Part shown: positions 1 to 45,265 of the stretch, piece after piece
Numbering within the stretch: position 1 is the first letter of the stretch
Layout: each line of letters starts with the position of its first letter
NCBI GenBank assembly: GCA_008632985.1
Contig: QPGO01000161.1
Coordinates: 1 to 64,000, forward strand
DNA: 64,000 nucleotides
Source of the DNA: Psammoneis japonica
Taxonomy: Eukaryota
Direction: 5' to 3'
Made by a program: the position numbers and the translations under genes
Notes under the pieces: generated by a model
What the model saw: the letters and a program-made list of their open reading frames with translations, nothing else
Databases searched by the model: none
Told to the model about the DNA's origin: nothing

Positions 1-990
1 CTGCATGCACACCACCACACATGTCATTTTCCAGCCTTGCACAAATCAAAGATGTTGAACCTTTGACACAAATGTTTGCATGCTGCATGACATTCAAGTG
101 TGGGTCACTTTCTTGGAAAGGAAGCAACTGTTTCGATGTTGCACAAGAGACTGAATGTCAGTGTTTTTGCCCCCGGGAGCTTTGCTCTTCCACCCATCCG
201 GACAGGTTTTGGCTTCAAAGACACCTGAGCGGGATGGTTCTTGCTCTCCGCAGCTTTTTTCTCCCACCAGTCTGGAGCGACAGCCTCTTTAGAACAAGCT
301 CAAGCAGAAACAGTCAATCATCGGCCCACACCAATCAGATGGGCTGTCAATGCTGTAGAACAAATGCTGCCACCTGTCTCTGGAATGTTGCCTTTAAACC
401 TGTTGTTGCCTCAGGATTCCACATTTTAGAAATGGCGCATGACGGTCAACTGGGAACTCCGATTGTTCTGCACATGCAGACTTGGCAAGCCACTCAAGGT
501 TCCTGGCACACGGGTTGCCCCAAAGGACCATGCAAGAGGATTGCAGGGAAAAGCCAAACGATGGTTGATCTGCGCAGCTGGAAATGATTCCCTGTAAATG
601 ACCCACAGAATGAAGCTGTCTGAATGAAATTCCGTTTTTGATTGCAGCAATTCACTCACGTCGGTTGGAAAATCGCCAATGAAAAACTTCAAGTGTTGGC
701 AAAAGTCATCGTTGGAGCTGCATCGATCATGCCACCAACAGCAACAAATGGGTTGCTCGATGCGGTCGAACTTTGTTTTCATCGTGGTCGTGTTGACTTG
801 TTACGGCATCGTATCCTGTTTGGGAAGTTCAACTTGAGGAGAAGATTCCAGCCGCGGCTGATGATCGCGAATCAGAACACTCATAAATAGGAAAGTCTGA
901 ATGTTTTGAAATGACACGTGTGACTGGCATCACGACCCAGTTCACACCCGCCACCGTCATCACGCACGACTGACCGAACCCCCGGAACTC
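1..990. mobile_element. Degenerate TpA-depleted repeat/TE fragment, unclassified, truncated by the window edge
   Basis: Very few TpA and excess TG/CA up to about 780. Overlapping ORFs are Cys/His-rich and almost Tyr-free, like the identifiable TE blocks elsewhere in the window. No diagnostic domain recognised. Confidence 0.45.
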
Positions 991-6290: not shown

Positions 6291-6945
6291 TTTTTCGTTA
6301 TCATTATGGTGTTGTTGAGTGAGATACTCGTGTAGGACTGTTGTGTGTCACGACGCTGGTGCCTTATTGCTCATGGAATCATGCTTCAAGAGCTTATTGG
6401 ACGCTACTCTGGTGTGCATGTGCCAGCAACCACGTATTGATGCCACCATACTATCTCTCTTATTAGCACATGTCGTGGAGGTAGGTACAGGAAGAGAAGA
6501 GAACAGAGAACAACAGAGGCGAGGGGACGGCAAATTGTACCTCATGGACGGAAGTGGAAGTGGGACTGCGAACGTGCAATTATTACATATTTATGTTCGA
6601 GACAGTTTTTGTGACGCACCTAAATAGATGTTTTTTGTCCGCGACTTCCTTACTGTACAGATAGATAGTGTTTGTTGTAACTTCTTCTAATATTGTGTCC
6701 TAAATAATAATGTCAATCGTAATGTCACTATGACTATGTAATAGTTAAGTGCATCCAACAGTATGGAGGGCAATAAAACCAATAATGATTCTTCACTCTG
6801 TCATAATTGTTGGCATTTAGCCATAAGTGTTTTTCCCCCACGATTTGATCCTCCCCCTCCTTTCATCATTCATCTGTCGCGATACGTCTCATAAAATATT
6901 GCCAATCAAACTTTGAGTTTTAAACTAGACCTTTCATTCGCAACA

Positions 6946-9417
6946 ATGTTCGCCAGTAAAGCAGTTCTTCTCCTGCTAGCTGCAGCCTCTGGTTTGCAGA
7001 GGAGCGACGCCCAACCGGTACGAACGGATGAATCGCGTGTACTTTGTTGAAAGGAGTGTGTGTCCTTACTACTTCCTTTTTGATTACTCACCATATCTTT
7101 TTTGAAATAAACGCGTTGTACAAAGGGAGAGGAAGACTACATTCTAGAAGATCCTCTGTTTCTCGGCGATCTCCAGCGGGAACTTGGTACCGACATGGGC
7201 GTCCCCGGCATCCAGACAAATGCCATTTGCATGAATGACGCTGCTGGTGAACCCGGGCTTACATGTACCTCCAACGCTGTCGATCTAGCATCGGCTATCC
7301 CACCCGCAAATGTTACGGGCTGCAACGCTGAAGGTGATGATGTCAGTTTCACTTTGCAGTTCCAACTCGATATAAATGCAGGTCAACGCTTCGACGTTGG
7401 CATTTGGTTTTCAGAAACGGGTACGAGCGCCCAAACAGGAGTCTGCACTGTGGTGAATTTACCGTGGGGACAGTCACCGACTTATGTTGACTTGGATATG
7501 ACGAACAACCCTCTTCCAGGAGGCGGCGGAAGTGCCCCTCCATCCAACATACAAGATACGTGCGGAGATCTTGACAAAAGTTCTCAAACGTTCCCTGTCA
7601 TGCTGACCATCCCCTTGACGGTGAAATGCGTCGATCTAGTTGGCAATGATCGCATGTTAGACGTACCATACTGCACCAGCTGGAGGACGTCAGGAACGAC
7701 GAAGAACACCCTATGCACATCCCCTCTTGAAACCTTTCCTCTTGAAAAAAGCATGTGCAGATGCGAAATGCTATCGCTCCCCATTGTTGTACCAGGAACG
7801 CCGAGTCCCACGCCATCACCTACCCCGAGTCCAACACCTGCGCCAACTCCTTCCCCTACCCCGAGTCCGACGCCGTCTCCAACTCCAGGTCCTACCCCGA
7901 GTCCGACACCGTCACCTACACCTGCACCAACGCCTTCGCCCACTTTGAGAAAGGGCGCTTGTTGCCCACGAGCGGGATCCGGCAGGGTTTGCTTCAAGGG
8001 AACCGAAGAAGAATGTGTTTCAAATGACGGACTCTGGCAAGGAAATGGCGTAAGCTGTCGGGACGTAGATTGCCCGACCCTACATCCTACGAAGTCTCCT
8101 ATTGAGAGACCCACCAAGGCTCCAAAACCCCCGGCTCCAACCGCAGATCCAATGACCCCGGTTCCTACCCCGGCTCCTACCAAAGCTCCTACACCAGCAC
8201 CAACGCAGAGCCCTGGTGCATGCTGCACCTTGTTTAATGGTTGCAAGTCCCTTTCTGAGGAGACGTGTACTTTGGGCGGTGGTACATTTTCGAAACCAAA
8301 CCAAAAGTGCAAGGATACTAGTTGCCCCATCACGGGAGCTTGCTGCTTGGAGGATGGATGCGAGCGATCCTTCAAAAAGGAGTGTACCAACCAAGCAGGC
8401 GAGTTCAAGGGATTTGGTGTGTCATGTACAACCGGCTTGTGCCCGATTAAACCGCGACCCCCATCCACACCCCCACCCACCCCTACGAGTACCATGAAAC
8501 CCACCCTTCCTCCTCCCCCGACTGGAGCGTGCTGTGATGTCGACAACGATGAGTGCAAGCAAACCACGCAAATAGATTGCGACACGGGCGTATTCTTAGG
8601 ACTTGGAGTCAAGTGCAAGAAGGGCGTTTGCCCCACAAGGAATTCTCCTGGAGCATGTTGCCTCGAATCTGGAGACTGCCGTTACTTGTCTCAAAAGACA
8701 TGCGCCATCTACGGAAAGCTTTTCTTGGGTCCTGGTACTTCCTGTAAGTACGTGGTGTGCGCAGTCAAGACTTCAAGCCCAACCATGGCTCCAACCACGA
8801 CTCCAAGCCCGTCCATTACTCCAACCACGACTTCAAGCCCGACCACTACTCCAAGCCCAACTACGACTCCAAGCCCAACCATATACACGAAACCGCTCGG
8901 AGCCTGCTGCTTCAAGAACGGACTTTGCCGCAACCTCATTCCTGCCGTATGCAGGAAGAAGTACGGCAAGTTCATCGGTGTTGGTACAATGTGTAAGCCT
9001 GACAACACCTGTCCCGTTGGGGGCGGCAAGCCCGGTGCGTGTTGCTTGGTTGAAAAGAACCAATGCAGAACTCTCAAGGAGAAGCAGTGCATCAAGAAGA
9101 GTGGGCATTTTGCTGGAGAACGTGTCAAGTGCAGCAAAACTTCGTGTCCGGCTGCCTATGGTGCATGCTGCTTGCCCAAGGGATCGTGTGCCGTGTTGAA
9201 GAAGAATCTGTGCGTGAAGAAGAAGCACGGGAAGTTTGTCGGATTCGGTACCAAGTGCAAGAAGAAGACCTGTGCCTCTGAAGAAGGTGCCTGTTGCTTG
9301 AAGAATGACAAGTGCAAAATGTTGAAACAGTCCAAGTGCGACAGACGCGGAGGAAAATTCGTTGGAGCGGGTGTCAAGTGCCGCAAGAAGACCTGCCGCA
9401 AGAGCCCTGATTATTAG
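6946..9417 (+). CDS. Secreted Cys-rich protein with PT/PS mucin-like linkers, GACC repeats and a Lys-rich C-terminus (paralog A1); join(6946..7017,7126..9417)
   Basis: Signal peptide [26 protein letters not shown] intron 7018-7125 keeps the frame into the 740-aa ORF. About 9 repeats of GACC-x-C-x-C-x-G-x-F-x-G-x-G-x-x-C. (TPSP/TPAP)n linkers. Confidence 0.85.
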
Positions 9418-9649
9418 TAGTTCGCACCCCGATCTACCATGCGAAAAATATGAAATGAAAATTCTCAAATTGATTTTGTTGAGATTGTTTCTACATACAA
9501 CTTCTAGTTTGCCGAATCAGTTGACCGTATAGGGTTTGATTAAAAATAAAGTTGCTTGATTCGTCGTCGATTGAAACGCACTTTATTTTTCCTAGTTTGA
9601 ATGTTCAATGTGCTTTTATTTGTGATTTAGACCTTGTTAAAAAACCGTT

Positions 9650-9945
9650 ATTTGGATCTAAAGCGAAGAGTCAGATTTGGACTCTTGCGGAATGCGGTGC
9701 ATAAGACCTCATCAACTCATGACAGTTCAGACTGGCTCCAACAGAAGGCCACCACTTCTTGGCACATGCCACAAGAGGATGGTGAGATGTGAAGAGTTTG
9801 AATGAAATTTGATGTCTGAAAAAGGTGGTGCAACCACACAAGCACCCTCACAGTGGACCAACAGCAAAGCACATGAAAGACAGCAACACACTCCTGTTTT
9901 CACTGCAACAGAAGTGCTTTGAATGAGTGAGTCACTCATTCAAGA
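9650..9945 (+). repeat. Downstream flank and repeat X, copy 2 (hypermutated from about 9720)
   Basis: Homologous to 20325-20760 and 6085-6290, but with TA->CA/TG and CG->TG/CA changes. Confidence 0.8.
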
Positions 9946-9949
9946 CCAA

Positions 9950-12900
9950 TGCCCCACCCTGAGAGACCACAGTGTGTGGACATCTTGGAGAATCTTGAAG
10001 AGATGCTTGTCACACTGGGTTTGCTTGGTGATGCAGCGGATTGACAGATGGCATTGTGGGGGGAAACACCTGGGGCAATGCAGGCAAGGAATGGATGGGT
10101 TTTTGGCGATGAAACAGCAGGTTGAGAATGCAGTTTTGTGGAGTTGCACAAGAGTCGCTCAGCAAGTGACTTGATGGTGGTAAGACTGAGGCTTTGAAAC
10201 CCCCGCTGGCATGCATGGACAGACTGCTGCAGCAGTGGAGAAGAGGCTGGGCACGGGTGCATGCAGTGTGCACAGATGGGTGGTGAAAGAAGGGCTTGGA
10301 TGTCCAAGGCAGAGCTGGCTGGGCAGAGACAGGGTGTTCTTGGTTGGCTCCAAACAGGAAGCAGTGGGCAAAGTGTCTTGGAGTGCCAAGGTGGTCAACA
10401 GCACCAACGGGGGTCAGTTCCCAGGTGGATGCAAGCACCACCTGAGGAGGTGATCACAGCAGCACCATGCTGCATTTTTAGAGTGCCACAAACTTCTGCT
10501 TGGCACTTGCATGATGTGCTTCAGCCAAGGGATTTTGAGTGGGGGCAGGCCATCCACACTTGCAAGACAGCTGTTGCCCAGAGGAGGGGCAGTGAAGAAA
10601 GCAGGGGGGGGGGGCAGGACAGCTGCATTGACAGGGCATTTAAGAGGCAAGTGCAAGATGAGGTTTGCAGGTTCATGGTGGATGGCAGAGGAGCCAGTGC
10701 AGAGACTGGAGAGACACCAGTTTTATGGCAAGCTGCAAAGAAGCTGTTGCAAATGGCATTGGATGGCACAATCTTGTGTCCCAAGGAGCAGCGACAGAAG
10801 GCATGATTGCCACAGCAGCCAGCAGCACCACTTTTCAGCTGTGAGTGAACACAGTCAAGATGCAATTGTTTGTGCAATGAACAGAGACAATGCACTCAAT
10901 TGACTCTCAAGGGGTGTGACAACCATGAGAGTGTGAGCAACTGGTGCAAACAAAAATGGCACTGATGCTGTTGGCTCCAACATGTCCAGTCCACTGGTGC
11001 GCCTGTGGCTTGCTGTTGCAAATCCATCAAAATTGTCACTGGCGGCAGTTTTTCCTTGGGGTGTTGTCCATGTGCACAAAAAAGGAGTTGTGGTTGGTTT
11101 GAAGCAAACACATTGCTTGTCTTGAGCTGTTCAATGAGTGCATTGACAATGGAGAGAATCTCTTGCGGTGGGCAGCAAATGACACAAAATGAGAGAAAGT
11201 CACTCAAACATGAAAACTGCAACTCAAATGAAGCTGTGATTCAGCAACCTTCTTGTGGGCACAAGAAAGGCACTCATGCCTCAAGTCTGTGCCCCATGTC
11301 AAGATTGATGCCACCACAATCCATGGACTCCCATGGTGGGACAGAGTGTTTTGCCGTGCAAAAAGAAGCTCCACAGGAGCCTTGGAAGGGTGGACAAGCA
11401 AACACATCAAACACCTGTGTCTGATCTGTCCAACAAGATGCCAGGGGACAGTGGCAACAAGCATGGCACCAGTGATGAAGGAAAATGAGTGGAGGATCTA
11501 AGATGGATCCATGCTCTGTCTGCACATGCCAGCATCTGTCCCCCTGGGTGTGCACCCAACACACCTCACAATCAAATGGCCATCATCCTCTGCTGATGGG
11601 CAATCTAGAGTCTCACTCTGCCAGAGAGCTGGTCAAGAAAAGAGAAAGAAAATTCAAGAAAGAAAAGGGGAGACAGACAATTGCAAATGTCTGAAAGGGT
11701 TGCCAAACAGAAGCTGCAGAGTCAAAGCAGACATCAGTCAAATGCATCAGCCACGGGGTGCCCCATCAATCGTCAAGCATGGTGAGCATGAAGTGCCCAT
11801 CCAACCACCTTGGTGAGAACATCAACAGGGTTGATGACTCCAGGGATGTGTCCAGAGACAATTTTCCCAGCCCCACGCCAGTCTTGGGGACAACAAAATG
11901 GTGAGTGTCAATGTGACATCATTGCTCAGCAGGGACCTGAGATGGTTGGTCATTTCGACAGCCAAAGAGTTGTCAATGAAGTGAGGGGTGGGTTCCTGTT
12001 GAAAATTCTAAGTTCCTCCAAGATCAATCAAAGCACAAGACCTGTTCAGCTCCAGTGACACCAGGCAGCAAGAAATTCTGCCTCAGCAAAACTTGTTGCA
12101 GCGAGCAACCGAGCAGTGCATCTTCATGCAGTGGCAGTGCCCACAAGAGTGTGTGGGTGCACCCTGTCATGGAATGGTGGCACAGCAGAGTTCATTGGTG
12201 CAGGCAGCATGAACAAATCCAAGTGGCTGAAAAGGGTCCCACACAACAGGAAATTGGGGCAATGCAGGATCAGCAACCAACCATTCAAAAGAGCAAGGTG
12301 GAAGGTCTGGGTTGCGATGGGACTTCTTGCATGACAACCCCCAGTCCTTGGTGCATCAAAGACACTTGGCAACATGGCAAAGAGAGTTGCAATGGGGCCT
12401 TGGCAAACTTGGAAAGGGTGACAATGGGGTGTTCAATGTCAAGGCGGCAACACGTGCATGCAAAAATCGATCCGCCCAAGAGCAAGCATTCCGGGGACTT
12501 GTGGCAATCTTCCACAAAGTGGCCTGCACCATTGCACCTTCTTCAGGACCCACTGTGTCAAACAACTTGGCAATGCAGCCAACTGGAACAGGAGTGGCTT
12601 TGAAATCCATGGTGGATTTGACAGTTGATCATGATCAAGTCATCATTTTCTTGATGACACCAAGTCCATTGAATTCAGTGCAGAGGTCCAGGCACTTGAA
12701 GGGAGGGGTCTTTTTGGCAAGAAGCCACAGCTCTCTGCCAATGTGATCAAAAACAGCAGTGGCGACATCTTCACTTGGACATGCCAGGGAGAAATTGTCA
12801 ACCCATTGCAGCAGCAACACCTTGGTGCCACTGCAGGTGATGGAGTGGACACACTTGTCGTGGACAGTGTTGCAAAACAATGGCTCAGCATTGGACAATG

Positions 12901-15900
12901 CAGCAATGATTTGCTTTTCCCACAAAACACCTGCCTTGGGATGGCCTTGAAGAGCATGAAGGACTAGAAGTGCATGACCCAGGTTCACACCTTTGCCAAA
13001 ATGGCCTTTTGACACTCACAACAAGTGCCGTCAACCACCACATGTGAGCTGGAGCAGAAGGAAAGGGGAGGTGAGTGAGCACGCACATCACAAGCATCTC
13101 CAGAAAACACTCAACAAATTGAACCTGCACTCAAGGCAAAGAAGAGCCGCTGGATCAACACACAAAGAACAGGCAGCCAGAAGCAAGCTTGTGGAGTGTG
13201 GGAACTGCTTTCTTGCATCAATCTCCACATTGTCTAGAATGGCCTTCACCTGCAGGCTTGAGATGATGTGTTGCCAGTGCAGTTGCATGACAGTGGCACC
13301 AGGTGGTTGAGGTTGCGGAGGTCCATGAATGCCAAGAGGAGCACAGAATTGACCCAACTGTTTCCATTTGCCTGCCTGTCATTTGAGCCGAGCAGCCAGT
13401 TTGCGAATGCAAGAGTGAAAAGACAATCCAGAGCCGCTTCCTCCTCAGCAATTTCATAAAAAACATGGCATTGAGGTGGGCACAAAATGCATTGTCCAGA
13501 ATTGCATCCTCAGAAAAATCATCTTTTGGACAGACAATGGAGGCAATCTCCCAAACTTCCTCAAGAGCAATCTGAGGGATGCGGGCTTCATTGTCAATTG
13601 GGGAGTCTGTGTCACACTTCATGTGGTCTTCCACTGCATGATGAAGTTGACAAGAGTCCAGGCAGTGTTTGGGTGCAAAAACAATGTCAAAAAGGGGGGG
13701 AAATGGATTCATCAAATGCCTGGCAAGAGCAGACTCAGCATGGATGATTGGCATCAAAAGGTTGGTGTTGATGAAGCAAACTGAGTTGCCCAGTGCATGA
13801 CACCCACACACCAGCCAGTGTCAACCTGAGTTTGGCAGTGAGCACTGTCATGCAAGACATGATTGACAGGAGCCACTGGGGCATCAAGAGAGTGAAATGC
13901 AATGTCTGCATGATGGGGTGGGATGAGAGGTGAGATGTGGACAGCGCTGAGCAGAGAAAGGTGTGCTTCCTCTTCCAAATCAAGGCATTCAAAGCCCAAA
14001 CTGTGTCAACATTGGCAGCATGGGGAACAGGAGATCCTTGCACTTTCTCTGGGTGATGTTTCACTCTCCTCCCCTTGTCTGGAGTGGATGGGTCATCATC
14101 AGGAATGGCAGCAATGCAAGGGGTGCCAGCAGAGGCTTGAGAAATGTCATTGGCACCCCCAAAGAGGCACGGAAGCAAGTGGCAACAAGTTGGTTGGACC
14201 CTCTTTCACAGTTGCCTTGCACTCATTGGTGTGATCAGAGAAAGAGGCACAGGGCAGCATTGCACATCCAAAATTAAAAATGGTCCAGACAAAAATCCAA
14301 GCTGTTGTCTGTCTGCAACACAGCAGCTTCATCCTGGAGATGTCATTTGCATTGTGCAGATTGACAGAAGAAATGAATCACATGTGAATGAGGAACGCAG
14401 CATTGTGCTCAAGATGGGACACTGTGCAAACTTGTGTTTGCCATTGCATGGCAGTCACAGGTGGTGGCGGTCTGCAGCAGTGGGGTCCTGCTTGATCTGG
14501 CAAACACCAGCAGTGTGTGATCCATGTGGAGCATGAGCAGTGTCATCTTCTGGAATCTCCATGGCAGCCAGTTCATTGACCAGCACATTGACAGCATCAT
14601 CAACTGGCTCAACAGGAGGAAGTTTCTTGGTTTCCGGAGTCAATGGCTCTTTGGGTTCTGGCAAGCATGTGAGCTGATGAATGGGTTCTTCACATTCCAG
14701 CAAATGTGTGAGCTGGCAAACCGGTGCACCATTGTGGGGATTGCATGGTGGATGGTTGTTCTGGCTGGAGGTGCAATGAGCAGGACATGCAGGAGTGTCA
14801 GGGCATTGAGCAGGACTGTCAGGTTCATTGAGAATGAGAGTCAGCATCTCAACAATCTTCTGGGCCTTGAATTGATTGACCTTGTTGGAGTTGTTCTTGC
14901 AAGCATTGGCTGTTTTGCAATGAGTGCATTCTCCACACTTCATGCCACCAATGAAGATGTCAAGTCAACCAAGAATGTCCAAGGATGCATCCACATTGGC
15001 ATCAACAGTGTGCACTTGATGGAAGTCCTTGAACAGAGCACAACAGCTGAGGACGGTGTCTTCAGTTTTGTGGGGGCAGCCACAGATCAGGTCATGTGAA
15101 CGGTTGCATGCCAAATGGGTGGGCAATCAAATGGGGCAATCTTGAGGGTGGAGCATCTGTCTCCATGGCACCATCAAACAACATCAGGAAACTTGGAGTC
15201 AGCAGGGAACAAACCTGGCTTCTGGAGGCACAAAAATCATGAAAGTCATTTGTTTCAGAGGCAGAGCCAAGCATTGAGGGAGATCAGCAGTTTTGTCATT
15301 TTTTCAGATGCAAGCCCCCAATCACCACAATCTTTTGCAAAGCACCAAAGGAGCAAATGTGTGTGCCATGAGATGCAACCTGTTGAGTGAAGACATTGCG
15401 ACATGCACGCAGGCTTTGAGGTGAAGCATCATTGCAAAACAGGGCATCATGCAGAAAAGATCCATCACATGGAAAGAGGTGCTCAGTGCCATCCAAGGCT
15501 CCATTCTTGCAGGGAGTCAAAGAGTTGCCGAGCATGACTTTGCCATCCTCCTTCTTGCATTCACATCATGCCAACACATCAGGAGGCAGTGTCTTTGGAT
15601 TGAATGTGCAAGCTGGAGATGACAGTGTTGATGAGGCAGGTGGTTGTGGAACTTGTTGAGGGTGGGGGCACACAGTTCATTGCTCGTTTCATGGCCTGCT
15701 CATGCTGAGCAGAACCAGGCAGATGATTGGCCAAGGCTTTGGCAAACTTGTTGTGATCAAGGACTAGAGCAGGAACAGTCTTGGCAGGTGGTGCACCAGA
15801 CGGAGCTTTCGTGTCACAGGGCTTGGCAGAAATGTCTTCTGAGTTGGCATGTGAAGCAATGCCAGTGCAGAGGAAGAGAGGTGCAGTGCCAACATGGACA

Positions 15901-16900
15901 AGCTTGGTGTCTTCATCTTCCAAAATTGCTTGAGTCATTGCCTTCAGTGGCTACAACAGGTTGAGCCGTTTCTCAAGTTGTCCAAACACACTGACAAAGA
16001 AAGGAGGAACAACCTTGTCAAAGATGGACTTGATGACAGAGGTTTTTCACATGGATCATTTAAAGAGCAATCAGTTCATGGATGATCTTCTTGCAAAGGA
16101 TCTGTGCAGAATCAATGTGAAGTCCATGGGGAGTGAAATCATTCAGAAATGGTCAAAAAGCTCTCTTGCACCTTCTTTCAGGTCAAATTTGTGAAGCTGA
16201 CATTTGAAGACAGGTGGAACATTTTCTGCTGTGTTTTTTTTGTGTCTGCTGCTGGGTGTGGACTTTGCTTGTTCACTCTTTAGCCACAGCAAATTTGTTT
16301 GGCCCTGCACAACAAGCGCCCGGTTGTTTCCTGTCTGGACCCCCAAAGCATTCATGCAGCCATTGTCTCCCTGCCACATCTTCTTTGATGTGCTGGGGAG
16401 TGTGGGTCCACTGTGTGGTCAGTGTTGCTGGGCCAACAGTGAGGCAATGGTGCAGCCAACTTCCATTTCTTTGTCTGCAAGGTGCCAAGGATGAGGGCCT
16501 CTGCTTGTGCCCCAGCAACAAGAGCCAGCGAGTTGCTTGTTTCATGGACTCTCAAATTTTGCTGGACTCTGGCAACACAAAGGCTCCCAAGACCCTGCGA
16601 GCATCAAGTCTCCTCCAGGGTGCATCATTTTACATTGTGGTTGCCCCACTTTGTTGGTTTCCAAGCAGGGTGTGCCACAGTGCACTGGTGCTGGCCCCAG
16701 CTTTTTGGAGCGACCTTGGGGGATTTCCCAGTTTTTTGGCATTCTTGCACCCCCCCCCCCCCCCCCCCCCCCCCGAACTCTCAAGCGGTGTCCATGCAAA
16801 TGTGGCCCAAAAGCGTCATGCTGGAAGTCACGTGGCGGCAGGGGGGTTTGTGACAACAATTTGTTCGAGGCATTTTTGGTGACGCCCTAGCACCATGGCG
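9950..16900 (-). mobile_element. Degenerate Ty1/Copia LTR retrotransposon (CoDi-like), TpA- and CpG-depleted
   Basis: Minus-strand RT remnants PPGATVMQLHWQH, VLHALQGHPKAGVLWEK and LLLQWVDNFSLA (xVDD region). RNase H remnants ATSFAEAEF, CHIDT and PVDVLTKVVGWALHAHHA*RLMG (about 11755-12110). Gag-like region about 14500-16500. No LTR pair found. 9950-11700 is unidentified but has the same composition. Confidence 0.85.
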
Positions 16901-17308
16901 CATCCTCTCAATTTTTGGAATTGCGTTGTTCACCATGTAAATGTTGCTTTTGTCTTGGACTCTGCCTTACAGTAGAGTTGTACGTATTTCTTTATTTGTC
17001 ATCTTAAATGACATGGTCAGTGGTACAAATATACTTTTAAATGTATCAGCATTATCATGTAATAGTTAATTAAGTGTAAACTACTTATGCGCAGAAGGCA
17101 CAGATGTGTCATGGGCAATATGAAGGGCAGTATAATATTAATAATGATTTTTAACTATGGCATAATGTTGTTACATTTAGTCATAAGTGTTTTTCAACAC
17201 ACGATTTGATCCTCCCATCCTTTCATCTCGGAGACGATCTGATGTCGCGATACGTCTCACAAAATGGCAATCGAACATTGAGTTAAGCTAGGCAGTTCAT
17301 TCGCAACA

Positions 17309-20324: not shown

Positions 20325-20760
20325 TGTATCTAAAGGGAAGAGTCAGATTTGGATTCTCGCAGAAGGTGGTGCAAAAGCTTGCGTCGACTCATGATGGCAG
20401 TCGATCAAGACTCTCAACTCTGGTCAGACTGGCTCTAATTAGAAGGCCGTTACTATTCTTGGCATGGGCCGCAAAAAAGGGTGATAAGATGCGAAAGTTT
20501 GAATGAGATTTGATGTGGGATGCGAAACTACACACCCAGATTTGAGACAGTCTTTTTGAGATTAGCCGATATATCGATATTGAAAGCATGTAGCAGTCGC
20601 AAAAGGCGGTGCAACCATAAAAGCGCCCATACGATAGAGCAGATGAATTAGACGAATGACACAAAAACACATGCTCCGTAAAAGACAGCAACGCACCGTT
20701 TCTACTGTAATGAAAGTGCTTTGCGTGAGTGAATCATCACACTCGTTCAACTCCAATAAC
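20325..20760 (+). repeat. Downstream flank and repeat X, copy 3 (unmutated)
   Basis: Matches 9650-9945 and 6085-6290 and retains its TA and CG dinucleotides. Confidence 0.8.
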
Positions 20761-21154
20761 GCCCCATGAGAGACCGTAGTATCTTTTTGGAGAGTCTCGA
20801 AAGGAACAGCACTTACCATGGGTTTGTAATTTACGAGATCAAGGTTCGTGATCTCATTCACAAAACATAATATCAGGCGGGAATTTGGGGTGTATCATAA
20901 AAAATGCGACACACATATATTAATATATATATACAAAGAGAAAGCAAGGGGGTTTATCTAAAGAAGTTAAATACAAATATGAAAATATTCAAATATATTG
21001 TATTCAGTGTTGTATTACCAGACGTACGGAAACTCCCGCTTGCTCCCGCTCACAAATTGGCGAGGGCGTCGAGAGAGCTTTTCACAGCGCAGCACAACAA
21101 TGTCATAAAAAATAAAGACGCATCATAAACTGACTGGCAGATACGAACATAACA

Positions 21155-23260: not shown

Positions 23261-23399
23261 GATGAGTTGGGGTAAGTTTGCCGATTTGAAAAATTGTGAG
23301 ACGAGCTAGTGAAAAGTGTGTGAGAACGCTGAGTCCCAAACGCACTCGTCAGCGGGATCTATACGTCGTCCATGGTGACATCAGATCCTCACCAGCTCT

Positions 23400-26300
23400 T
23401 CATATTGTTGACGCAGAGTCCAGCTCATCAGGCACAATTGTGAGTTTTTTTGGGTTGGTGGCATTTTTCGTGCGTTGGGTCGTGCATGAAAGCCTACGTG
23501 GAAAAATGATCATTGCCCCGTCTATTGCCCTTGAGACTTTTTCTCGCCACTGACTGTTGAAATGCGCGACCAAACACTTGTTGCACTCACGCACTGGCGG
23601 TCGTGCGCATGGTCAGCACGGTTGCTTTGTGTGAAATGTTGATGCCGCACAACAACGCACAACACAGTGTGGCTGGGCATGTGCAATTCTGTGTTGGTGT
23701 GTGCAACTCCAGCTCCCAAAAGGGGTGACATCATGTGCCTTGCCCCCAGGTCAGATGTGCAAAGAACCGCTGTGGTCAGCTCAACAGCTTTTTGGCAGCG
23801 GGGTGTGTGCTTTGTTTCATTTTGCTCATGGCAGAGAGTGCAGTTTGCCCCCAGGTCAGATGTGCAAGAAACGGCGGTGGTCAGCTTGACACATTTTTGC
23901 AGCGGCGGCATGTGCTTTGTTTCATTCAGCGCACTGTGGTGCTCTGACACAGCAGGTGAAAAACACAGGGTTTTTGTCTCTTTCTCATGCAGGCAAGTGT
24001 GGCAGCAATGTGTCTTGGTTTTGTTTGTGTGCACAGCATCCTTGCCAAACCTGTTGTTTGTCCTGGCTGGTCATTGGCACAGCCCATTGTTGACAGATGC
24101 AAGCAGGGCATTGTCAGTGTGCTGCAGCACATCAGCACCCATTGTGCTGTGCACAGTGTCAGGGCCAGAGCTGTGCTGTTGCTCTCACTCAACAAAAAGA
24201 GCACTCAGCTCTCCAGCTTCTGGAGGGAGGCAGAAGTGCCATGCTGCCCATGTTGCTTTGGCCAACAAACAATGGCCATGGATGTAAAATTTGCAAACAT
24301 TGTGTGCTTTGCTCTCCCCTCAGCCACCACCACACATCATTTTTGGGGGGGGTTGCTTGCAAAAAAGGGGAGCACATGCTGAGGTGCTGTTGATTGTTGT
24401 GGTGCTCCTTGAAGGAAATGCTGTTGAGAAAATGGCAACAGCAGAGGTGCCATGTTGGGTGGTTTCCATGGTTTTTGGCTGCACTGCACCAATGGCGAAC
24501 TCATCTGAAACTGAGTCTCACACTTGTTGAGTTGGTGTGGCTGCCATTTTGCCCATCATGTGCCCACCATTCTCCTCAGTGGTGGGGCCAGCAGAAAAAA
24601 ATTGTGAGTCAGCAGAAAAAAAAAACAACTGCAGAGCTTGTGCACACAATTCCATGGGCCAATCTTTGCATGCTGGCCCACCCCAGGATGGGAGTGCATG
24701 CAAACAATGTCGCCAATCACACAAGGGGCAAGATCCTTTTGTGCCATCACTCTCATGAGGATGACAACAAAGTTTGGCCTCCTCCTTTCAGCAGGAACTT
24801 GAGCTGACAACAGGCCAAGGCACAAAGTGCTTCTTGTGAAGCTTGTCAATGGACCCAACTTTCCTTGGCCTCAGAAAAAAAGTTGCTCACCGCCATTGTC
24901 TTGTCAAAGTTGGCTTCATCAAAGGCAACATTTGAAAAATGCAAAGCAAGTGGCAACTCCCTGGAGTGTGCATGTTTTTGTTGTTTCTTCTGAGATTGCT
25001 CATGCTCTTGTTCCACGAATTGAAAAGAGCACATTGTGTGCTGGTGTTTTGATGGTGTCCATGGCGCACCAGTGGGCAAGTTGATGTTTGTGGTGCTCTT
25101 GTGATTTTCTTGGTGTGATGTGCGACACTGTGATTGACGCTCATCAGGCTGTCCATCTGAGCTCCTCGACATGACACCCTTGCTGCACATGCCACAGAAA
25201 CAACATCCAAATGAGTTGTGGTTGGCCAAGTCTCAACAGGGTGGCGCTGGGTGTGCATTCTTTTGGGGGTGCAGGTGCTTTGCAGCTCAAAAAGCTCGAT
25301 GAGCAAATGTGTGATCTTGGGGGGCTGTGCACTGCACCACTCTGGCATCACCAAGAAAACCACAATTTTTGATGACTTCAATGCAAAAGCTCACAAAAAA
25401 TCTTCTCATCTCTGCTCATCTTCATGTGGGTCACAAGCAACAACAAGCAGCACAACCATTTGCTCAAACATCAGCAAGAGACTTGACAAATCTAGCTTGG
25501 TGGACAAAAAAAGTGCAAGAAAGCCACTTGGAAAATTGCTGGCAAATCTCCTTCATCGCTGGCAGCGTGCAAAGCAAAAGATGCCATTTTGGGAGAAGCT
25601 CCAAGAGCAGTTCAACGAGGTGCATCAAAATGCAAATGTGAGCGATGCAGCATTGTTGACAGCATCTCCAGACAATGACAAGCAGAGAAGGCCACTGCAA
25701 ACAATGGTGCTGACACACAAGGATTGAAGCAAGTTGTGTGTGCTGACAAACAAAAAGGGACAGCTGGCCATGCAAAAGTGTCTCCAGCTGTGCTTCTCAG
25801 GGTGTTTGTCAGGAGTGAGAGAGAGAGACACAACATGCATGTCCTGCACAAAGCTGGTGAAAACAATTTTTTAGAACAAGCCAGTGCTCCAGCACAGGGT
25901 TGCAATGGAGCAGCCAGAGAAGCACACTGCACAGCGCGGCATCAACAATCTTTGCTGGCGTCAATCTGCATGTGAGCAAGAGTTGAAAGTGGGTGATCCT
26001 TGAAGGTTGCAGAGTGCAAAATTTGCATCAGCACATTGTGCCAAAATGGCGCCAATGGTGTGGTGTTGACAATTTCATTGATTGTTCATGGTGCACATTG
26101 GGGTTGTGTTCCTGTTGAAAAAAGAAAGTCTCCAGTTGAGCCCCACATTGGTGCAACCCAGAGTGGCAGCAAACTCTGACTTTCTGCCCATTTCTCATCA
26201 TCAACAAGAACATGGCTGGGAGTTTGAGGTCACCTCATCAGGCCCTTGCATGGCAGCTTCAATGCAGCTCAAGCTTGACAAAGAAAGAGAGCAGCAATGA

Positions 26301-29300
26301 CATCACTGGGTGAAATCATTTTGTGTGGCACAGACAAGAAGCTCAAGAAGTTTTCTCATTCTGTCCTTGTTGCTGCATGCCATCATCAGTTGGAAAGAGG
26401 GGAGAGGGGGGTGGATGAGCTCTTTTTGAACAAAGCATTGGTGACTCCCTGGAGTGTGCACAAAATTTGTTGTTTCTTTTCAGATTGCTCACACTCTTGT
26501 TCTGTGAATTAAAATGAAAAACATCTTGTGTGCTTTTTGATGTGGCATCCATGATGCTGGGCAAGTTGATGTTTGTGGTGCTCTTGTGATTTTCTTGGCA
26601 CAACACATGACATTGTGATCAAATGTTCAATGTTCACCAGGCTGTCTGTCTGAGCTTGACATCATGATGCTCAAACACTGCATTTTTTGTGCTTGCATCC
26701 ACGGTTGAAGATTGGCATTGAACTGACCCCTCCTTGCACACCGTGCCACACAAACAACATTCAAATGAATTGTGGCTCGCCAAGTCAACAGGGTGGTGGT
26801 GGATGTGCATTTTTTGGGGTGTGTGGGGGGAGACTTTGCTGTTCAACAAGCTCAATGTGCAAATGTGTGATCCTGGGTGTGGGGCCGCACTGCACCACTC
26901 TGGTGTAAAAATCACAGAGAAGACCTCATTTTTTTGTTGAGTCCACTGACCTCAATGCAAAAGCTCACAAAGAAACTTCTCATCTCTGCTCATCTTCATG
27001 TGGGTCACAACAAGTGACAAACTGCACAACCACTTGCTCAAACAGTGTCCTCCAGCACCCAGTTTTCTCATGCTGTCCTTGTTGACATGCTCCATTGTCA
27101 TGTCATGAGACAAATCAGAGGACCCATGAAGAAAGCAAAAACCAATGACAGACATGCTCTCCAGCTCCAGCTCCAGCTCCAGCTCCAGGTGGTGGTGGCA
27201 CCCAACATGGCTGCTGATCTTTCACGTGTGGATGTTTTTTTTTTGCACGCAGCACAACACCATCCACTCGACAACTTTTTCATGTTTGTTCACACACAAT
27301 GCCTCCTCACAGAGAACAAAAAGCTGCTGGTGGCAAAACTGTCGTGTGCACATTGATTGGCGCAAACTTTTTTTTTGTGAGAGATGGCTCACTTTTTCTT
27401 GGCCAATGATGTGCACATGTGTGTGTGTCTTTTGCAGTTGTCTGCGCCACTTCTTGTGCTCTCCTCAGGTCAGTGCTGCTGGTGGTGTGGCGCTGGCTCT
27501 TTGTGGCCCCAAAAATTCAAAAACACCCATCATTTTGTTTGTGTGTGTGTTTCAATGGTGTCCATGTGTGGTGATGGGGATGTTTTGAGGCGCTCTTTTT
27601 TTTTCTTGTTTGCGACATGGCTGGAACATGCAATTCAATGAGGCGTGTGTTGCACATGAACAGTTGCATTTTGGGCAAACAACTCCGAAATTCAGCTCCG
27701 ATCCCACAACATCACATCACAATGTTGAAACGGACAAAGGTTTGGCATGCTGACCATGTGCTTGTGATTTGAATGCTGGCGATTTAATCCATGGGATTTT
27801 GATTGTAACATGATGGAGTTGGGGTCTTTTTGCATTGTCCCCCACAATTTGTGCATTTGCAGTCTTCGACAGTGCTGCCATTGTGAAGAGCATGTTGCTG
27901 GAAGTTGTTCTTGATGGCTGAACGTGCCGATGGGTTGGAGTTCATCCCACACCTTGGGAATGGCGCCATGTCCTCTTGCAAATGCGTTTGTGGACAGGCA
28001 TCCTGCAAGAAAATCTCTGAAGCATTTGGGAGTCTCGGCAACATTCAAGGTTTGCATGCCCAGATGCCAGCGGTGAGGGAAGGTGCGAGAAAGCAGAGCT
28101 TTGGGAAGCTAAAGCAATCCAAGTTTGGCCGCTGCATGGATCACCTTGGTGGAAAAAATGCATTGGGTAATGTGAGCAATGAGACCTTTGACAAGTGCAG
28201 CCAAGGGTCAAAACCTGCTGCCAGCACCAGAAGCACTGTCAATGGCCCAAAGCACAAGGCCAAGAATGTGGCTTGGCATCATTTCCACCCGGTCATCATC
28301 AAGAAGGCATGCAACCCAGTGTCAAAGAGCTGCATGTGCATTGACATGATTCCATGTCAGTTTGTCCACGAGAGGATTGGCGCTGGCAATGGCCACACGA
28401 AAGAAGACTGACATGGTGATGAAAAGTGCACTGTGGTTCCAAGCTGTGTTCATGCTGCCGATGACTTGAAGATGCTGCAGTGCCGAAAGTCATTGGAGGA
28501 CAACACATTGGAGTAAAAACAGAGATGTCGACAGCAACCAGCAGGTCTGGACCATCCTGCGGGTGTCTCTTTCATGTGGAAGACAACTTGTCCATGTGCC
28601 CTTGGCTTGGTCGCAGCAGTGGTGCTCCATCTTTTGCTCCCATGCTCGCAGTCGCCTTCCTTTGGTCAGAACTCAATGCTGCCACCCTCACAACATGTGA
28701 GCAACTGGCGGAGGATTGTGGCACGCCGATTGATGAAAATGGACGCAACACATGATGCATTTCGACACATCAATCGCTCTTTGTCTTGATCCACCACCGG
28801 TGTTGATGTGTCCGCGAGCGAAATCTGACAGAAAACATCAGAGTGCAGCTGTTCACGCAAAACATGCGCCTTGTGTTCACTTGCACAAAAACGGTCCCTA
28901 ACTTGCGATCAAACTTTCACCACCAAAAGTGTGGATTTACACAATTGTGAATGTTTTGCAACACTGACAAGACTCGTGTGAGTGTTGCAATGTCATCGTC
29001 ATTGTGCCATCTGTGTTTTTCATTGCGTTAAAAGATTCGCAACACAGTGGATGATTTTCAGCGAAAACATTGCCATCATTTGGATGTTGCCCAAACGTGT
29101 CTTTCTGCCATGCTGCTTGGCAGGTTTTCTACCTGCAAAGAAATCTCAGTGCAAATCCACTGACTGACGTGCAATCAGCATTGAGTCTGCTGAGAGAAAG
29201 TTTGTGATGCATGTCCCATGAGGACTTGAATGCCCCACAAAAAACTGTTTGAATGTTCATGCTCTACAAGCCTGCAAAAGTCAATCCATCCAAGCATTTT

Positions 29301-29780
29301 ACATGAAAACAATGCATGCACTAAAAGATGCACAATTTACACTCAAAATCGATTGTCGTTTTGTGCGTCACCTGGGACTGGAACACGTCACAAAAGGCCT
29401 TGACAATGGTTCTTTGTCCTCTTCACAGAAGCACACACACTTTTTTTTTTGGAGAAAGATGGCTCACTTTTTTGGGGGGAGAGATGGCTCACTTTTTTTC
29501 TTGTTTTGGCGCCAGTGGTGCACACACGTGTGTCGTTTTTTGTTTTGTTGTCTGCTGGTGTGCTGCTTGTGCTCTTGTTGCGCACTCCTTTTTTGAGAGG
29601 TCAGCACACTCGTGTTTGTGCCCCAATTTAAAAAAAAAACGCAAAACAACACCCATCATTCTGTGTGATGGGGATGTTTGTGGCGCTCTTGTTGTAATTT
29701 CCTCTTGTCATTGACGTGTGACATGGCTGATGATTCAACGTTCGTCAGCTCGCTGTCCGATCGAGTCGGAGCTTCGACAA
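23400..29780. mobile_element. Large TpA-depleted degenerate repeat/TE block, unclassified, with internal duplications
   Basis: TpA nearly absent. Internal repeats 23741-23845/23846-23930, about 24950-25480/26435-27040 and about 27365-27625/29445-29730. No diagnostic transposase recognised. Confidence 0.6.
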
Positions 29781-30171
29781 CATGATGATGTGTTCGCAAA
29801 TAAATGTCGCATTTTATGTCTACCTACACCATTGTAGATTCGCATAAAACCAACCCCTCCCTGTACATTCTACACAAATTACACACCAAACACAGCATTT
29901 CCGCGCGTGCGTCGTATATAGAAATTTAGTCTAAAAAATGTTGGGCTAAACAAGAATCAAACATTTATTTATATTTGTAATTAGAGATTTGATATAAAAT
30001 CAAAATGACTATCGAAACTGCATCAGTCGTGTAGCTTTTGTACCACACGTTGTGTAGAATGCACTTGAGTATACTCTTATATATTCATTAACATTCATAT
30101 TCCACCGTTGCCAATCCCACGATGCGTGTCGCACGCTCCACATTCACAACAAACAAAAACAAAACAACACC

Positions 30172-39361: not shown

Positions 39362-39519
39362 GATAGCAAAGGGAGTGCTTTTCTTTTTTCTATTGACAAA
39401 TCGGTTGTGCTCATGGCGTTTGTTTGACTTTTGTTCTTGTGTTCTCATCGAACTGATGTCTCGAAGAAATGAAACATACAAACACGACGTAAATCATTGA
39501 AATTTTCCAAAAAAAACTC

Positions 39520-40861
39520 TCACGAGGGGGCACGGTCGGTCAGACCAGGGATTTTGTTCGAGCGCGCGCACCGCGCCGCAGAGCGATGCGCGTGTTGGTT
39601 CGCCTCTTGAGAACTGAGCATGCGACAGCTCTGTTCACAGCACAGAGCAATGGTTTCCTGAGCATGACACACACTTTCATCACCTCTGGAGATCAAGAAG
39701 AGCAACTTTGGCATTGTTGCTTGAAGAGATTTGACACAATGTGATGGTGTGGCTCGAGGGGGCACACTGCCAAGTGTGCTGCCATCCTGGGTTTGAGAAA
39801 CTTTTGAACACATCACGAGGTTTTCCACATGTTTCTAAGTGACACATGCACCCAGCACCAAATCCATGTAAAAAAATCAAGCTCCACAGCAAAGACACAT
39901 TTTTTCACATCTCGAGCCACACCAATCATGTGCACCAAAAATGTGGCACACACCCTGCTGCGGCCATGCACTCGCCCCAACGGCCATTGTGTCTGAGAAG
40001 GTGAGAATGCCAAGACAGGTCAACAAGACTGTGCTCAGTGCAATGATGTGGATGAAATTTTTATTTTTTCCATTTGTTGCACCTTGTGGATGGCCTTTTG
40101 ACTCCCCTTGATGTTTCAGACTTCTCTTTTTCTCTTCTCTTTCTCAGATTGCAGGAGCACAGGGAGCCTCCACAGCTCTGGACTCTGTTGACTTGGTGCT
40201 TGCCACAAACAACAATGTGCATCTTCACGGTGCATTGGTTTGTTTCTTGTGATGCATTGAGTGCTCTTCAAGTCATCGTGGATGATGCTTTTGGGTCAAG
40301 AAAAAACACCAAATTTTGGTGCTCACAAAAGAATGACCTGCACTCAGTTTTTTAGGGTTCGAGGCAGTTAAGAAGCCTTTGGACAAGTCTGATGGGTGCA
40401 ATGTTGCAAAGTGGAACAAAAAACATTGTTCAAGATAAAACTGGTTCTTTTGAGCATTGAAATGTTGTCAACATTTTGCTGTCTCATCTCTGCTTCTGTG
40501 TTTCAAATGACCAAATTGCCCCACATTCATCAAACATCGACTCTGCCAATTCAGTGCCAGCGTGCAACTGACTCAAGAGTCCCACAAAAGTCAACAAATC
40601 AATTGATCTTTGAAGCAGTTGATTGCACAAAAAATGCACGATGCATGTGCCAAGCCAGGTTCACCGATTTTTCTTGTAAAAAAAAAGGAGTTGGGGTGCC
40701 TTTTTTTTGGCACAAACTCTTTGCACAATGAAAAATGCACAATTCTTTCAAAATGGTCAGATGCAATGAAAAAAAAAACAGCAGAACAGTCTTTCAAATG
40801 TGCCTGAAAATGAAGAGGAAGAGAGCCATCTTGGTTCAAGTTGTGGTTGTTCAATGACAGT

Positions 40862-40896
<35 letters not shown>

Positions 40897-43800: not shown

Positions 43801-45265
43801 AACTTTGAGGTCTGGAGCATGCTGGCTTGAATGTTGGAAGGACATTCCACCAATGAGCAGACAGCACCGGGAAACTGGCACCAACCACTGTTGATGGCTT
43901 GCTCTTGGACACCATGGCAGACATGGCAGACTTGACATTTGGCGACACAGCACCAGCAGGATCCATCTGAGTGTTTGCAACAATTGCATTTTCAGCTTGA
44001 GGCATGTGTCAGCAACACTGGAGCTTCTAACAGCAGACGTGGGAGCTGGGTTGAACTTGCACTCTGCAAACCAACTGGAACTTAGAGAAGATGTCACAGG
44101 TGAGGTGAGAAGCAAAAGAGCTGCTGCGTGTCCACTGCAGCAACTAAAAGGTGACACACCATGATTGCTCCAGTCCTTCTGCTGTGAGAAAGGTTGTCTG
44201 TACCCTTTTCAAAGCACACATGTTTCTTGGCAATGTTGAACTGAGAGGTTTCAAGATCATGCCAAAAATGACATTCTTGGTGGCATCAGATGAACACCCT
44301 CCTTGCAGCAGTTAACTTGGCACAGCAGCAGCCGGGTTCTTGGACTCAAACATGACAACCAATTTCAACCTTCCCAGTGGCTTTAGCAATGTGAGCTGCA
44401 TCTTGATCATTGCATGCAACAGATGCAGTGGAAACACCAGAAGACATGATGACAGCCAGAGTGGACAATGTGTGGACCCAATGAGGAGCCACGCGCAATG
44501 CTGCAACAAGATGTCAATCAATGCACGTCAATGAGGGGTTTGCATTCTTTCCTGCGTTGGCTTTCTTTTTGTTTGCTCTGGCAGCTTTCATTGCTCTGTG
44601 ATTTTGTGATCAATTCTTGGTGGGCCTGGCATTTTGAGGTTTGCTGCATTTTTTCCTGCAGTCTCAGAATTGGGTCGATTGTCCTTCATTCCAGTGGCAA
44701 CAGGCTTCCTGGATTCTTTGGCAGATTTGGAGCTTTTTGCAACCACTGACATCAGCAATTTCCATGTCAGATGGCTCATCTTCCAAGAGGATTGACCTTG
44801 GAAAGATCTGTGTCAGATGGCTCATCTTCCACGAGGGCTGTGGCTGGGTTCTTTGTCTTTGCCAGGGCTGATCCAGTCATCTCGCACAGGTTGTTAGAGT
44901 CATCTTGTGACTCTTCATTGCCCACAAAGTGCTCAAATTTGCCATCTTTGGGGGCTGCTTGAGTGCCAGCTGAGTCCAATGCCTTGTTGTTGTTTCGAGT
45001 TGGATGTTTTTTGTTTGCGTTTTTGAGGGAATTTGATCTCGCCTTGGGCACCCGTCTCCTTGCGAGCGGGCGGTGCACCCTTGCGTTTGGTCTTCCTGTT
45101 TGCCTGAAGAGACCCTCTTTGCACCGCCTGCGGTGAAAGCTGTTCTGTCTGTGTCCCTCCAATCAGATGCTACACGCCGTGTGCAGAGCCTCTCTAGAGT
45201 AGAGGTGCAAAGCGGCCGAAGTTATTCTTGCGAAGAGGCCCGACCGCTGCTGTGCCACGTGTGAG
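39520..45265 (-). mobile_element. Degenerate Mutator/MULE-like DNA transposon, TpA-depleted
   Basis: Minus-strand remnants resembling a MULE transposase: CSPILCG, LKWLDDQAWS..RHQHGVRSTSCIA (compare YG..TSN.AES) and a SWIM-like LTCQEF region. RING-like THCPL near 44470. Only weak terminal similarity (tctcac..ggcac..cggtc). Confidence 0.55.

Follow-up and report, generated by a model that had tools for sequence, protein, structure and literature searches.

Hypermutation that is directed at the dinucleotide TpA, and that changes A:T pairs into G:C pairs, has so far been described in one preprint and for one rhizarian alga, the chlorarachniophyte Bigelowiella natans, where it strikes integrated viral DNA (Mettrop et al., bioRxiv 10.64898/2026.01.13.699255). 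Among 302 nuclear single-nucleotide mutations called from Illumina reads of mutation-accumulation lines, 231 were located in two integrated viral regions, and 230 of these 231 were A>G or T>C changes, all of them at TpA. The same preprint reports 124 clusters of windows that are poor in TpA and rich in CpA and TpG, with reverse transcriptase and DDE domains over-represented among the coding sequences there, and it proposes an ADAT2-like DNA adenine deaminase as the agent, citing BjADAT2 and TbADAT2 as DNA-editing relatives. Here, we analyzed 64,000 nt of a contig of the diatom Psammoneis japonica (QPGO01000161.1, positions 1 to 64,000; hereafter the window), in which seven blocks are almost free of TpA, one of them (block 1) containing the remains of a Ty1/Copia retrotransposon. 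Our results make it very probable that TpA was lost from these blocks in situ, by conversion to TpG or CpA.

Other systems share some of these features. Fungal repeat-induced point mutation (RIP) changes C to T, mainly at CpA, in duplicated DNA, and thereby creates TpA. Deamination of methylated CpG cannot remove TpA. Enzymes of the ADAR and APOBEC3 type have RNA or single-stranded cDNA as their substrate, and the traces that they leave are strand-specific and lie within the element; ADAR, a metazoan family, prefers adenines preceded by a U. TadA/ADAT deaminases target U33-A34 of tRNA, in which the edited adenine is preceded by U/T, and early TadA-derived editors had a preference for YAC. We know of no demonstration that TadA/ADAT2 enzymes naturally perform chromatin-targeted, double-strand-wide editing of DNA.

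The locus of P. japonica resembles the situation in B. natans in that the change is an A:T to G:C transition restricted to TpA (12 of 13 TA of an unmutated paralogue have become TG or CA), and in that both outcomes, TpG and CpA, occur and either strand is hit. The affected DNA forms discrete domains in P. japonica; block 1 is of mobile origin, and no origin could be assigned to the other six blocks. On the other hand, the host is a diatom (stramenopile) and not a chlorarachniophyte (rhizarian), and the identified target is a retrotransposon of the long terminal repeat (LTR) type together with its host flanks, instead of a giant-virus or virophage insert. The depletion is also close to saturation, the ratio of observed TpA to that expected from base composition (o/e) being 0.00-0.10, compared to 0.45 in the nucleocytoplasmic large DNA virus (NCLDV) region of B. 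natans. CpG is co-depleted in the cores of the blocks, whereas the main text of the preprint mentions neither CpG nor diatoms, and the preference for T-A-Y and the CpG-normal margins described below are not met in its Results and Discussion. Finally, we have the footprint alone, whereas de novo mutation was measured in the B. natans lines. An earlier note on this DNA, made from its letters, had known of no such system being described in diatoms. Our literature search found no diatom report, the B. natans preprint being the only match, and the accessible text of a mutation-accumulation paper on Phaeodactylum tricornutum reports no such hotspot; the novelty is nevertheless limited to diatoms, the same signature having been published in 2026 for a chlorarachniophyte.

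Results

When scanned in 1-kb windows across the 64,000 nt, the blocks contain, per kb, 1-5 TA, an o/e of 0.01-0.10, along with 3-45 CpG, whereas DNA outside them contains 22-68 TA per kb (o/e 0.3-0.8) at a CpG o/e of mostly 0.6-1.2; the o/e of TG plus CA is 1.6-2.0 in the blocks versus 1.0-1.3 elsewhere. The earlier note had claimed that the blocks almost lack TpA between normal neighbours, and this holds: at the coordinates given there, a total of 26,416 nt or 41% of the window, the o/e is 0.00-0.10 for TpA and 0.14-0.62 for CpG (Table 1), the flanks having a TpA o/e of 0.4-0.8, and its manual count for 9961-10980 (4 TpA and about 7 CpG) proved exact on recount. From base composition, 453 TA are expected in block 1 (9723-16950), and 281 if the o/e of the flanks (0.62) is applied, but 18 are present; CG numbers 62 instead of 443, and the longest run without TA measures 1,490 nt. 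TG (o/e 1.72) and CA (o/e 1.95) are both raised by about the same amount, and the effect is therefore strand-symmetric. Compared to the composition outside the blocks, the loss of TA plus CG amounts to 160 per kb, and the gain of TG plus CA to 162 per kb.

Table 1. Positions of the features discussed in the text; TA and CG counts (o/e in brackets) refer to the block coordinates of the earlier note, given under "Counted".
Feature	Position	Strand	Counted	TA	CG	Remarks
Block 0	1..880	no strand	1-780	5 (0.09)	22 (0.49)	truncated by window start; TpA o/e 0.09-0.12, CpG 0.5-0.6
Gene copy A	6759..9722	+				tandem duplication, copy B at 17116-20394; 81-92% identical; neither hypermutated
Block 1	9723..16967	no strand	9720-16950	18 (0.04)	62 (0.14)	TpA-free domain; CpG also low, 9696 to ~16710
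Host spacer, hypermutated	9723..10010	+				left edge of block 1; homologous to spacers 20395-20830 and 6000-6330
Ty1/Copia pol remnant, degenerate	11758..13691	-				extends from reverse transcriptase to RNase H
Right margin of block 1	16711..16967	no strand		2 (10.6 expected)	10 (13.9 expected; normal)	
Unmutated paralogous spacer	20395..20830	+				follows copy B; taken as pre-mutation reference
Block 2	23363..29800	no strand	23450-29750	22 (0.05)	113 (0.32)	TpA-free; no family assigned
Block 2 margins	23363-23650 and 29580-29800					CpG normal
Repeat pair inside block 2	24942-25470 and 26431-27044	+				copies differ by TG/CA swaps
Block 3	39392..45170	no strand	39600-45180	23 (0.06)	57 (0.18)	TpA-free; no family assigned
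Block 4	47003..49670	no strand	47140-49650	12 (0.07)	34 (0.23)	TpA-free; no family assigned
Block 5	49941..53090	no strand	49990-53090	19 (0.10)	126 (0.62)	CpG o/e still 0.62 at TpA o/e 0.10
Block 6	63030..64000	no strand	63090-64000	0	17 (0.31)	truncated by window end; 63090-64000 without any TA

The direction of the change can be read from unmutated DNA within the window. Block 1 occupies the spacer between the tandem gene copies A and B, and its first 290 nt are homologous to two spacers of ordinary sequence, the one that follows copy B and a third copy. None of the 13 TA of the normal spacer is kept at the edge of block 1 (eight read CA, four TG and one TT), and neither is any of its 14 CG (seven CA, five TG, two other), while in the same alignment TG is kept at 17 of 21 positions and CA at 14 of 18. 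Where the same duplication lies outside the block, TA is kept at 42 of 50 and 12 of 26 sites, and CG at 58 of 64 and 27 of 38. Because the unmutated paralogous spacer has TA or CG at the positions in question, the edge of block 1 is converted host DNA, TA and CG having become TG or CA. The repeat pair inside block 2 shows 22 adjacent double transitions between its copies (TG/CA 13, AC/GT 5, AG/GA 2 and AT/GC 2), and TG/CA swaps are what is expected if one ancestral TA or CG was resolved independently in each copy after duplication. Spacers and repeat pair thus bear out the proposal that ordinary sequence was turned into the blocks in place and on both strands, through the change of TA and CG to TG or CA.

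The tandem genes A and B, which are 92% identical over 1.2 kb, are not hypermutated. A second example of a repeat without hypermutation is a local tandem duplication in normal DNA (4648-5058 and 5211-5603, 82% identical over 420 nt), whose TpA content is ordinary. In addition, an inverted repeat has one arm in block 5 (51765-51916) and the other in normal DNA (53356-53508, at the start of the open reading frame (ORF) 53418-54680); the arm in block 5 has undergone several changes of TA to TG or CA and retains some TA and CG, i.e., its conversion is partial.

The edges of block 1 are abrupt, with the last TA on the left at position 9702 and dense TA again from position 16968, and the domain edges are sharp to about 30 bp. 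The TpA-poor domain is 150-290 bp wider than the CpG-poor core, and at block 1 the mutated domain reaches 100-290 bp into the host spacer on either side. Pooled over six margins of 153-288 nt (1,441 nt in total), TA numbers 12 where 59.5 are expected and CG 90 where 77.7 are expected, and blocks 0, 5 and 6 combine a TpA o/e of 0.00-0.10 with a CpG o/e that is still 0.31-0.62. Because of these CpG-normal margins and of blocks 0, 5 and 6, the depletions of TpA and CpG are separable, the loss of TpA being the faster or the wider one. The earlier distinction between a TpA process and CpG decay is therefore sound, and it also fits the metagenome copies described below, which lack extra CpG loss. 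Two observations concern the anatomy of the blocks. Block 1 contains homopolymers of about 26 C near its right edge (16750-16775) and of about 11 G further in (10596-10606), and between blocks 4 and 5 there is an island of 270 nt (49670-49940) in which TpA has its normal density, adjoined by a single N at 49980 that may be a scaffold join.

The sequence context of the loss is specific. In the blocks, ATA/TAT occurs at 0.01 of its normal frequency, GTA/TAC at 0.05, CTA/TAG at 0.12 and TAA/TTA at 0.17, whereas AA/TT is enriched, not depleted (AAA/TTT at 1.26 of normal). The TA that survive are mostly of the type Y-TA-R: an A precedes 4 of the 101 survivors compared to 416 of 1,495 TA in normal DNA, and a T follows 6 of 101 compared to 402 of 1,495. 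The gains per kb of TGY (53.6), CAY (41.1), TGR (27.4) and CAR (39.9) are too confounded to reveal a strand preference. As a side effect, TAA and TAG are nearly absent from the blocks, so that only TGA ends frames there (e.g., 50649-51869 and 16208-16882) and long spurious ORFs arise.

With regard to the content of block 1, a minus-strand read-through translation of 12635-13378, with stops written as X, was used as query in phmmer and matched 278 proteins at E<=1e-3. The best match (P0061, 1,280 aa; E = 3.2e-30) carries the domains RVT_2, SH3_retrovirus and gag_pre-integrs, and in eight matches that were scanned (seven of at least 505 aa and one of 416 aa) these domains were present in eight, six and four, respectively; on account of them, the relatives of block 1 are Ty1/Copia polyproteins. 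By tblastn, residues 612-1277 of P0061 align to the minus strand, running from 13691 to 11758. A set of 15 Copia proteins gave a tblastn match in block 1 and in no other block, and tblastn produced no gag or integrase match in block 1. Ungapped scans in a transition-blind purine/pyrimidine alphabet detected neither an LTR pair in block 1 nor similarity between the blocks; gapped BLAST in this code was uninformative, as a shuffled control scored equally high. Judged from these comparisons, block 1 holds a decayed and fragmentary Copia remnant that comprises reverse transcriptase and RNase H only. The element has many stops, and none of three Tyr columns of the Copia consensus is kept (they read F, H and C), nor are 7 of 11 Arg columns, the changes including two TGA, two His and one Gln. 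The earlier note had pointed to HWQH in place of HWQY; the four normal relatives indeed read LRPHWQY, LRQHWQY or LHPHWQY where the window reads MQLHWQH.

Relatives of the element in public data show the same loss of TA to TG or CA, in partial form. Among the best 150 protein matches, whose median Tyr content is 3.2%, ten have no Tyr at all, four of these being at least 150 aa long; His plus Cys is mostly raised in them. The six of these ten that were looked up all derive from ENA assemblies and have H or C at conserved Tyr positions. Such Tyr-free public "proteins" (P0147, P0120, P0159, P0130 and others) resemble translations of TpA-poor DNA of the kind found in the blocks. A scan of metagenome contigs yielded 234 relatives, from which 80 loci were retained; these come from several assemblies, some with SPAdes-style names, and have a TpA o/e of 0.23-0.81, seven being at or below 0.34. 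Because the ten loci with ORFs of at least 700 aa have a TpA o/e of 0.36-0.72 (Tyr 1.9-3.8%), better-preserved relatives are not TpA-free, which bears on the question, raised in the earlier note, of whether intact copies are equally devoid of TpA.

Low-TpA copies were paired with normal copies to which they are 80-85% identical in nucleotides, pairs of normal copies serving as controls. The low-TpA copies keep 14-19% of TA and have turned 71-79% into TG or CA, whereas control pairs keep 52-56%; in one example, 18 of the 108 TA of a normal relative are kept, 40 read TG and 38 CA. CpG is kept at 52-58% versus 45-55% in the controls, and AA at 73-82% versus 73-75%. Both outcomes are again balanced (238 TG and 245 CA). 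Most normal copies have TA at 144 sites; where both members of a pair of low copies are mutated at such a site, they are TG/CA-discordant in 22-47% of cases, and many sites are mutated in one low copy only; this discordance means that the loss was independent, repeated and copy-specific. The chance of A>G per strand varies with the base that follows (C 0.40, T 0.33, A 0.22, G 0.20), the effect of the preceding base being smaller. The preferred site in these copies is T-A-Y, in agreement with the Y-TA-R survivors of the window. Some metagenome loci (L061, L012/L016 and L034/L040) retain open frames of 526-605 aa at a TpA o/e of 0.21-0.29, a CpG o/e of 0.70-0.74 and 0.5-0.9% Tyr; they may represent early-stage hypermutation, or elements that are evolving TpA avoidance.

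The letters of block 1 are supported by reads. A single public run (coded X1), and no RNA run among those listed, contains the region, with 93% of the sampled words of 8600-18000. Contigs built from its 31-mers extend over 9068-16739, with 60 nt (11190-11249) missing, and differ from the assembly at 9 letters over about 7.6 kb (5 in 9068-11189, 1 in 11250-14210 and 3 in 14187-16739); among the 8 that are listed, a TA arises once (15300), and in no case is the TA pattern restored. Word depth is 56-60 in the block and about 47 in the flank contigs, which places block 1 at single-copy depth, and a 31-mer depth of about 56 on contigs of 2-3 kb argues for accurate reads. A base-calling artefact, which the earlier note had asked to be checked, is thus unlikely. 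Another run of the same sample (X2) covers the neighbouring genes and has no cover inside blocks 1 and 2; it was not used as expression evidence.

Discussion

We propose that the blocks are domains of the chromosome whose DNA itself was rewritten in situ by a locally confined hypermutation in which TpA becomes TpG or CpA, i.e., an A:T to G:C transition at TpA on either strand. This hypermutation would be most efficient at T-A-Y and least so at Y-T-A-R, and would have run nearly to saturation, its targets being the dead Ty1/Copia retrotransposon, the 100-290 bp of host spacer that flank it at either end, and the six other blocks. Since the host flanks are mutated and the strands are affected symmetrically, an RNA or cDNA route does not apply, and since neighbouring genes, including the 92%-identical pair, escape, the trigger would be neither repetition alone nor an RNA/cDNA intermediate, but a property of the domain. 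As to the chemistry, we give adenine deamination an even chance: a TadA/ADAT2-like deaminase that is drawn to silent or foreign chromatin would change adenine into inosine in DNA. The T-A-Y preference fits such an enzyme, the first candidate put forward in the earlier note, and the predominance of T-A-C and T-A-T would resemble the U33-A34 context of its tRNA substrate. In the cores of the blocks, a second and slower process would convert CpG to TpG or CpA, and this loss is best ascribed to deamination of methyl-cytosine in a putatively methylated core; methylation of cytosine is on record for the diatom P. tricornutum (PMC6604790).

The blocks share with RIP a regional, saturating and defence-like transition hypermutation that destroys mobile DNA, leaks into flanks and is read out by dinucleotide indices. 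The direction, however, is opposite, TpA being destroyed and TpG/CpA created, and duplication alone is no trigger, given that the 1.2-kb tandem pair is untouched; RIP does not fit on either count. The conversion of CpG to TpG/CpA in the block cores (o/e 0.14-0.32), with 12 of the 14 CG of the normal spacer having become TG or CA and none being kept, is like methyl-CpG decay, but decay alone does not fit, as TpA was lost too, even where CpG is normal. ADAR- and APOBEC3-driven editing is likewise a hypermutation of retroelements by a deaminase, if a deaminase is indeed at work here, but in P. japonica both strands and the host flanks are hit.

The strongest alternative to adenine deamination, although an unlikely one, is that thymine is the damaged base. 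A dioxygenase of the TET/JBP type would oxidise T at TpA, and perhaps 5-methylcytosine (5mC) at CpG, and the resulting 5-hydroxymethyl- and 5-formyl-pyrimidines would mispair with G or A, giving T>C at TpA and C>T at CpG. The target being palindromic, T>C and A>G look alike in every test; moreover, T and 5mC are both 5-methylpyrimidines before a purine, so that one enzyme could explain both depletions of the cores. It is also known that 5-formyluracil mispairs with G and that 5-hydroxymethyluracil of dinoflagellates is enriched at TpA. A single enzyme is not required, however, because the margins and the metagenome copies lose TpA without CpG, and the preference for T-A-Y matches the U-A-N context of TadA/ADAT substrates. 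We know of no report of such a thymine modification in diatoms, although no search for one was made. Error-prone repair synthesis of the Pol eta type, recruited to methylated or heterochromatic DNA, was the second candidate of the earlier note, and we regard it as improbable. It is true that this polymerase makes A>G errors opposite T with a preference for WA motifs, and that both strands would be affected, as seen, but the effect is specific to TA and does not extend to WA: AAA/TTT is in excess in the blocks, AA is untouched in the low-TpA copies relative to the controls, and a 99% conversion of ATA/TAT would be hard to achieve through occasional repair patches.

Two further explanations would do without any mutation of the chromosome, and both are very improbable. 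A long-read caller that misreads modified bases, 5mC at CpG as T and a modified A or T at TpA (N6-methyladenine read as G), would give exactly such a pattern, and the only run with the region has no recorded platform and may be the assembly's own sample. Nevertheless, the X1 contigs reproduce block 1, the same change of TA to TG or CA is seen in metagenome contigs of several assemblies, Tyr-free Copia fragments occur in ENA assemblies, and pure miscalling would cause neither the many stops of the element nor its lack of gag and integrase matches; the B. natans mutations, for their part, were called from Illumina reads. Alternatively, the composition could have been inherited, the inserts having been poor in TpA and CpG already, through horizontal transfer or through selection against TA and CG in the elements, or having been edited as RNA or cDNA before integration by an ADAR- or APOBEC-like activity. 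Hyperediting of animal retroelement RNA with a 5' U preference is known, and several metagenome Copia copies combine long frames with a low TpA o/e, as described above. Against this, the adjoining host spacer is mutated too and unmutated paralogues exist within the window, the repeat copies of block 2 have resolved the same sites differently, TG and CA are about equal whereas RNA or cDNA editing would be strand-specific, and the ten relatives with the longest ORFs have a TpA o/e far from 0.03.

Several points weigh against our proposal of hypermutation by adenine deamination. The paralogue test within the window is based on few sites (13 TA and 14 CG). Only one of the seven blocks was shown to be a transposon, and the description of all blocks as transposon-derived is therefore upheld for block 1 and not for the other six; six-frame translations of blocks 1-5, with stops as X, contained no credible Pfam family, the sole row being a sub-threshold zinc-finger (23.7 bits versus a cutoff of 27.4), and Pfam searches with single block ORFs at E up to 10 returned noise only. 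As TpA is its own reverse complement, A>G is indistinguishable from T>C, and adenine deamination leaves the CpG loss unexplained, so that a second process is needed. A processive single-strand deaminase might leave runs of TG or of CA, and no strand-coordinated runs were detected by a runs test (z -1.9 to 0.7), a test that is weak at saturation. The metagenome loci belong to a Copia lineage whose proteins are only 32-51% identical to the block 1 element. The support from X1 depends on a read accuracy that we infer from 31-mer depth, and X1 is probably the assembly's own sample, so that it shows the letters to be reproducible and does not represent an independent individual. Finally, the deaminase is a candidate agent, and the rule of targeting a putative one. 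The earlier idea of an A>G mutator acting at TpA on both strands is supported as a process, with A>G and T>C taken together.

It is tempting to extend the proposal, although only tentatively. Diatoms, and perhaps much of the stramenopile-alveolate-rhizarian (SAR) group, may possess a chromatin-guided DNA adenine-deaminase defence that removes TpA from whole silent domains, beginning with T-A-Y and regardless of cytosine methylation or sequence repetition, with elements responding by shedding TpA. The saturated footprint in a diatom, together with the partial footprints in metagenomes, would mean that the process has a wide distribution and a long history. To its mechanism, the present data add the T-A-Y preference, the independence from CpG decay, the sharp edges that include host flanks, and the lack of effect on mere duplicates. 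If true, the system would be a second counterpart to fungal RIP, mechanistically distinct from it, and a natural, double-strand-wide A-to-G editor of chromatin DNA, which would be of interest to base-editing research. Model diatoms can be transformed and gene-edited, and the question of the enzyme becomes testable if they also bear the signature. There is a consequence for annotation as well: blocks of this type give spurious long frames and escape Pfam-based annotation of transposable elements, which inflates gene counts and hides repeats.

Other features of the window

In block 5, a 406-aa open frame (50649-51869) encodes Pro/Thr-rich repeats that resemble those of genes A and B; it had no family match, and no homologue of it was found. 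The ORFs of the tandem genes (7111-9417 and 17470-19764) contain arrays with a 12/36-nt periodicity, at 7726-8001 in copy A and, much longer, at 18085-18636 in copy B, which encode Pro/Thr/Ser-rich repeats without a Pfam family match. Among 18 long ORFs of the window, Pfam gave two matches only, Nucleotid_trans and a weak PhoX. For a glycosyltransferase gene of the window, the closest relatives with a name are 39-43% identical and come from Nitzschia, Pseudo-nitzschia, a Bacillariaceae metagenome-assembled genome (MAG) and Thalassiosira, in accordance with a diatom host. A perfect 123-nt tandem duplication (21428-21673, 100%) within the ORF 21134-21994 may be very recent, or may be an assembly duplication. 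At 32439-32849, nine copies of a 42-nt tandem repeat, 61-100% identical, are present within the ORFs 31602-32834 and 31982-33529.

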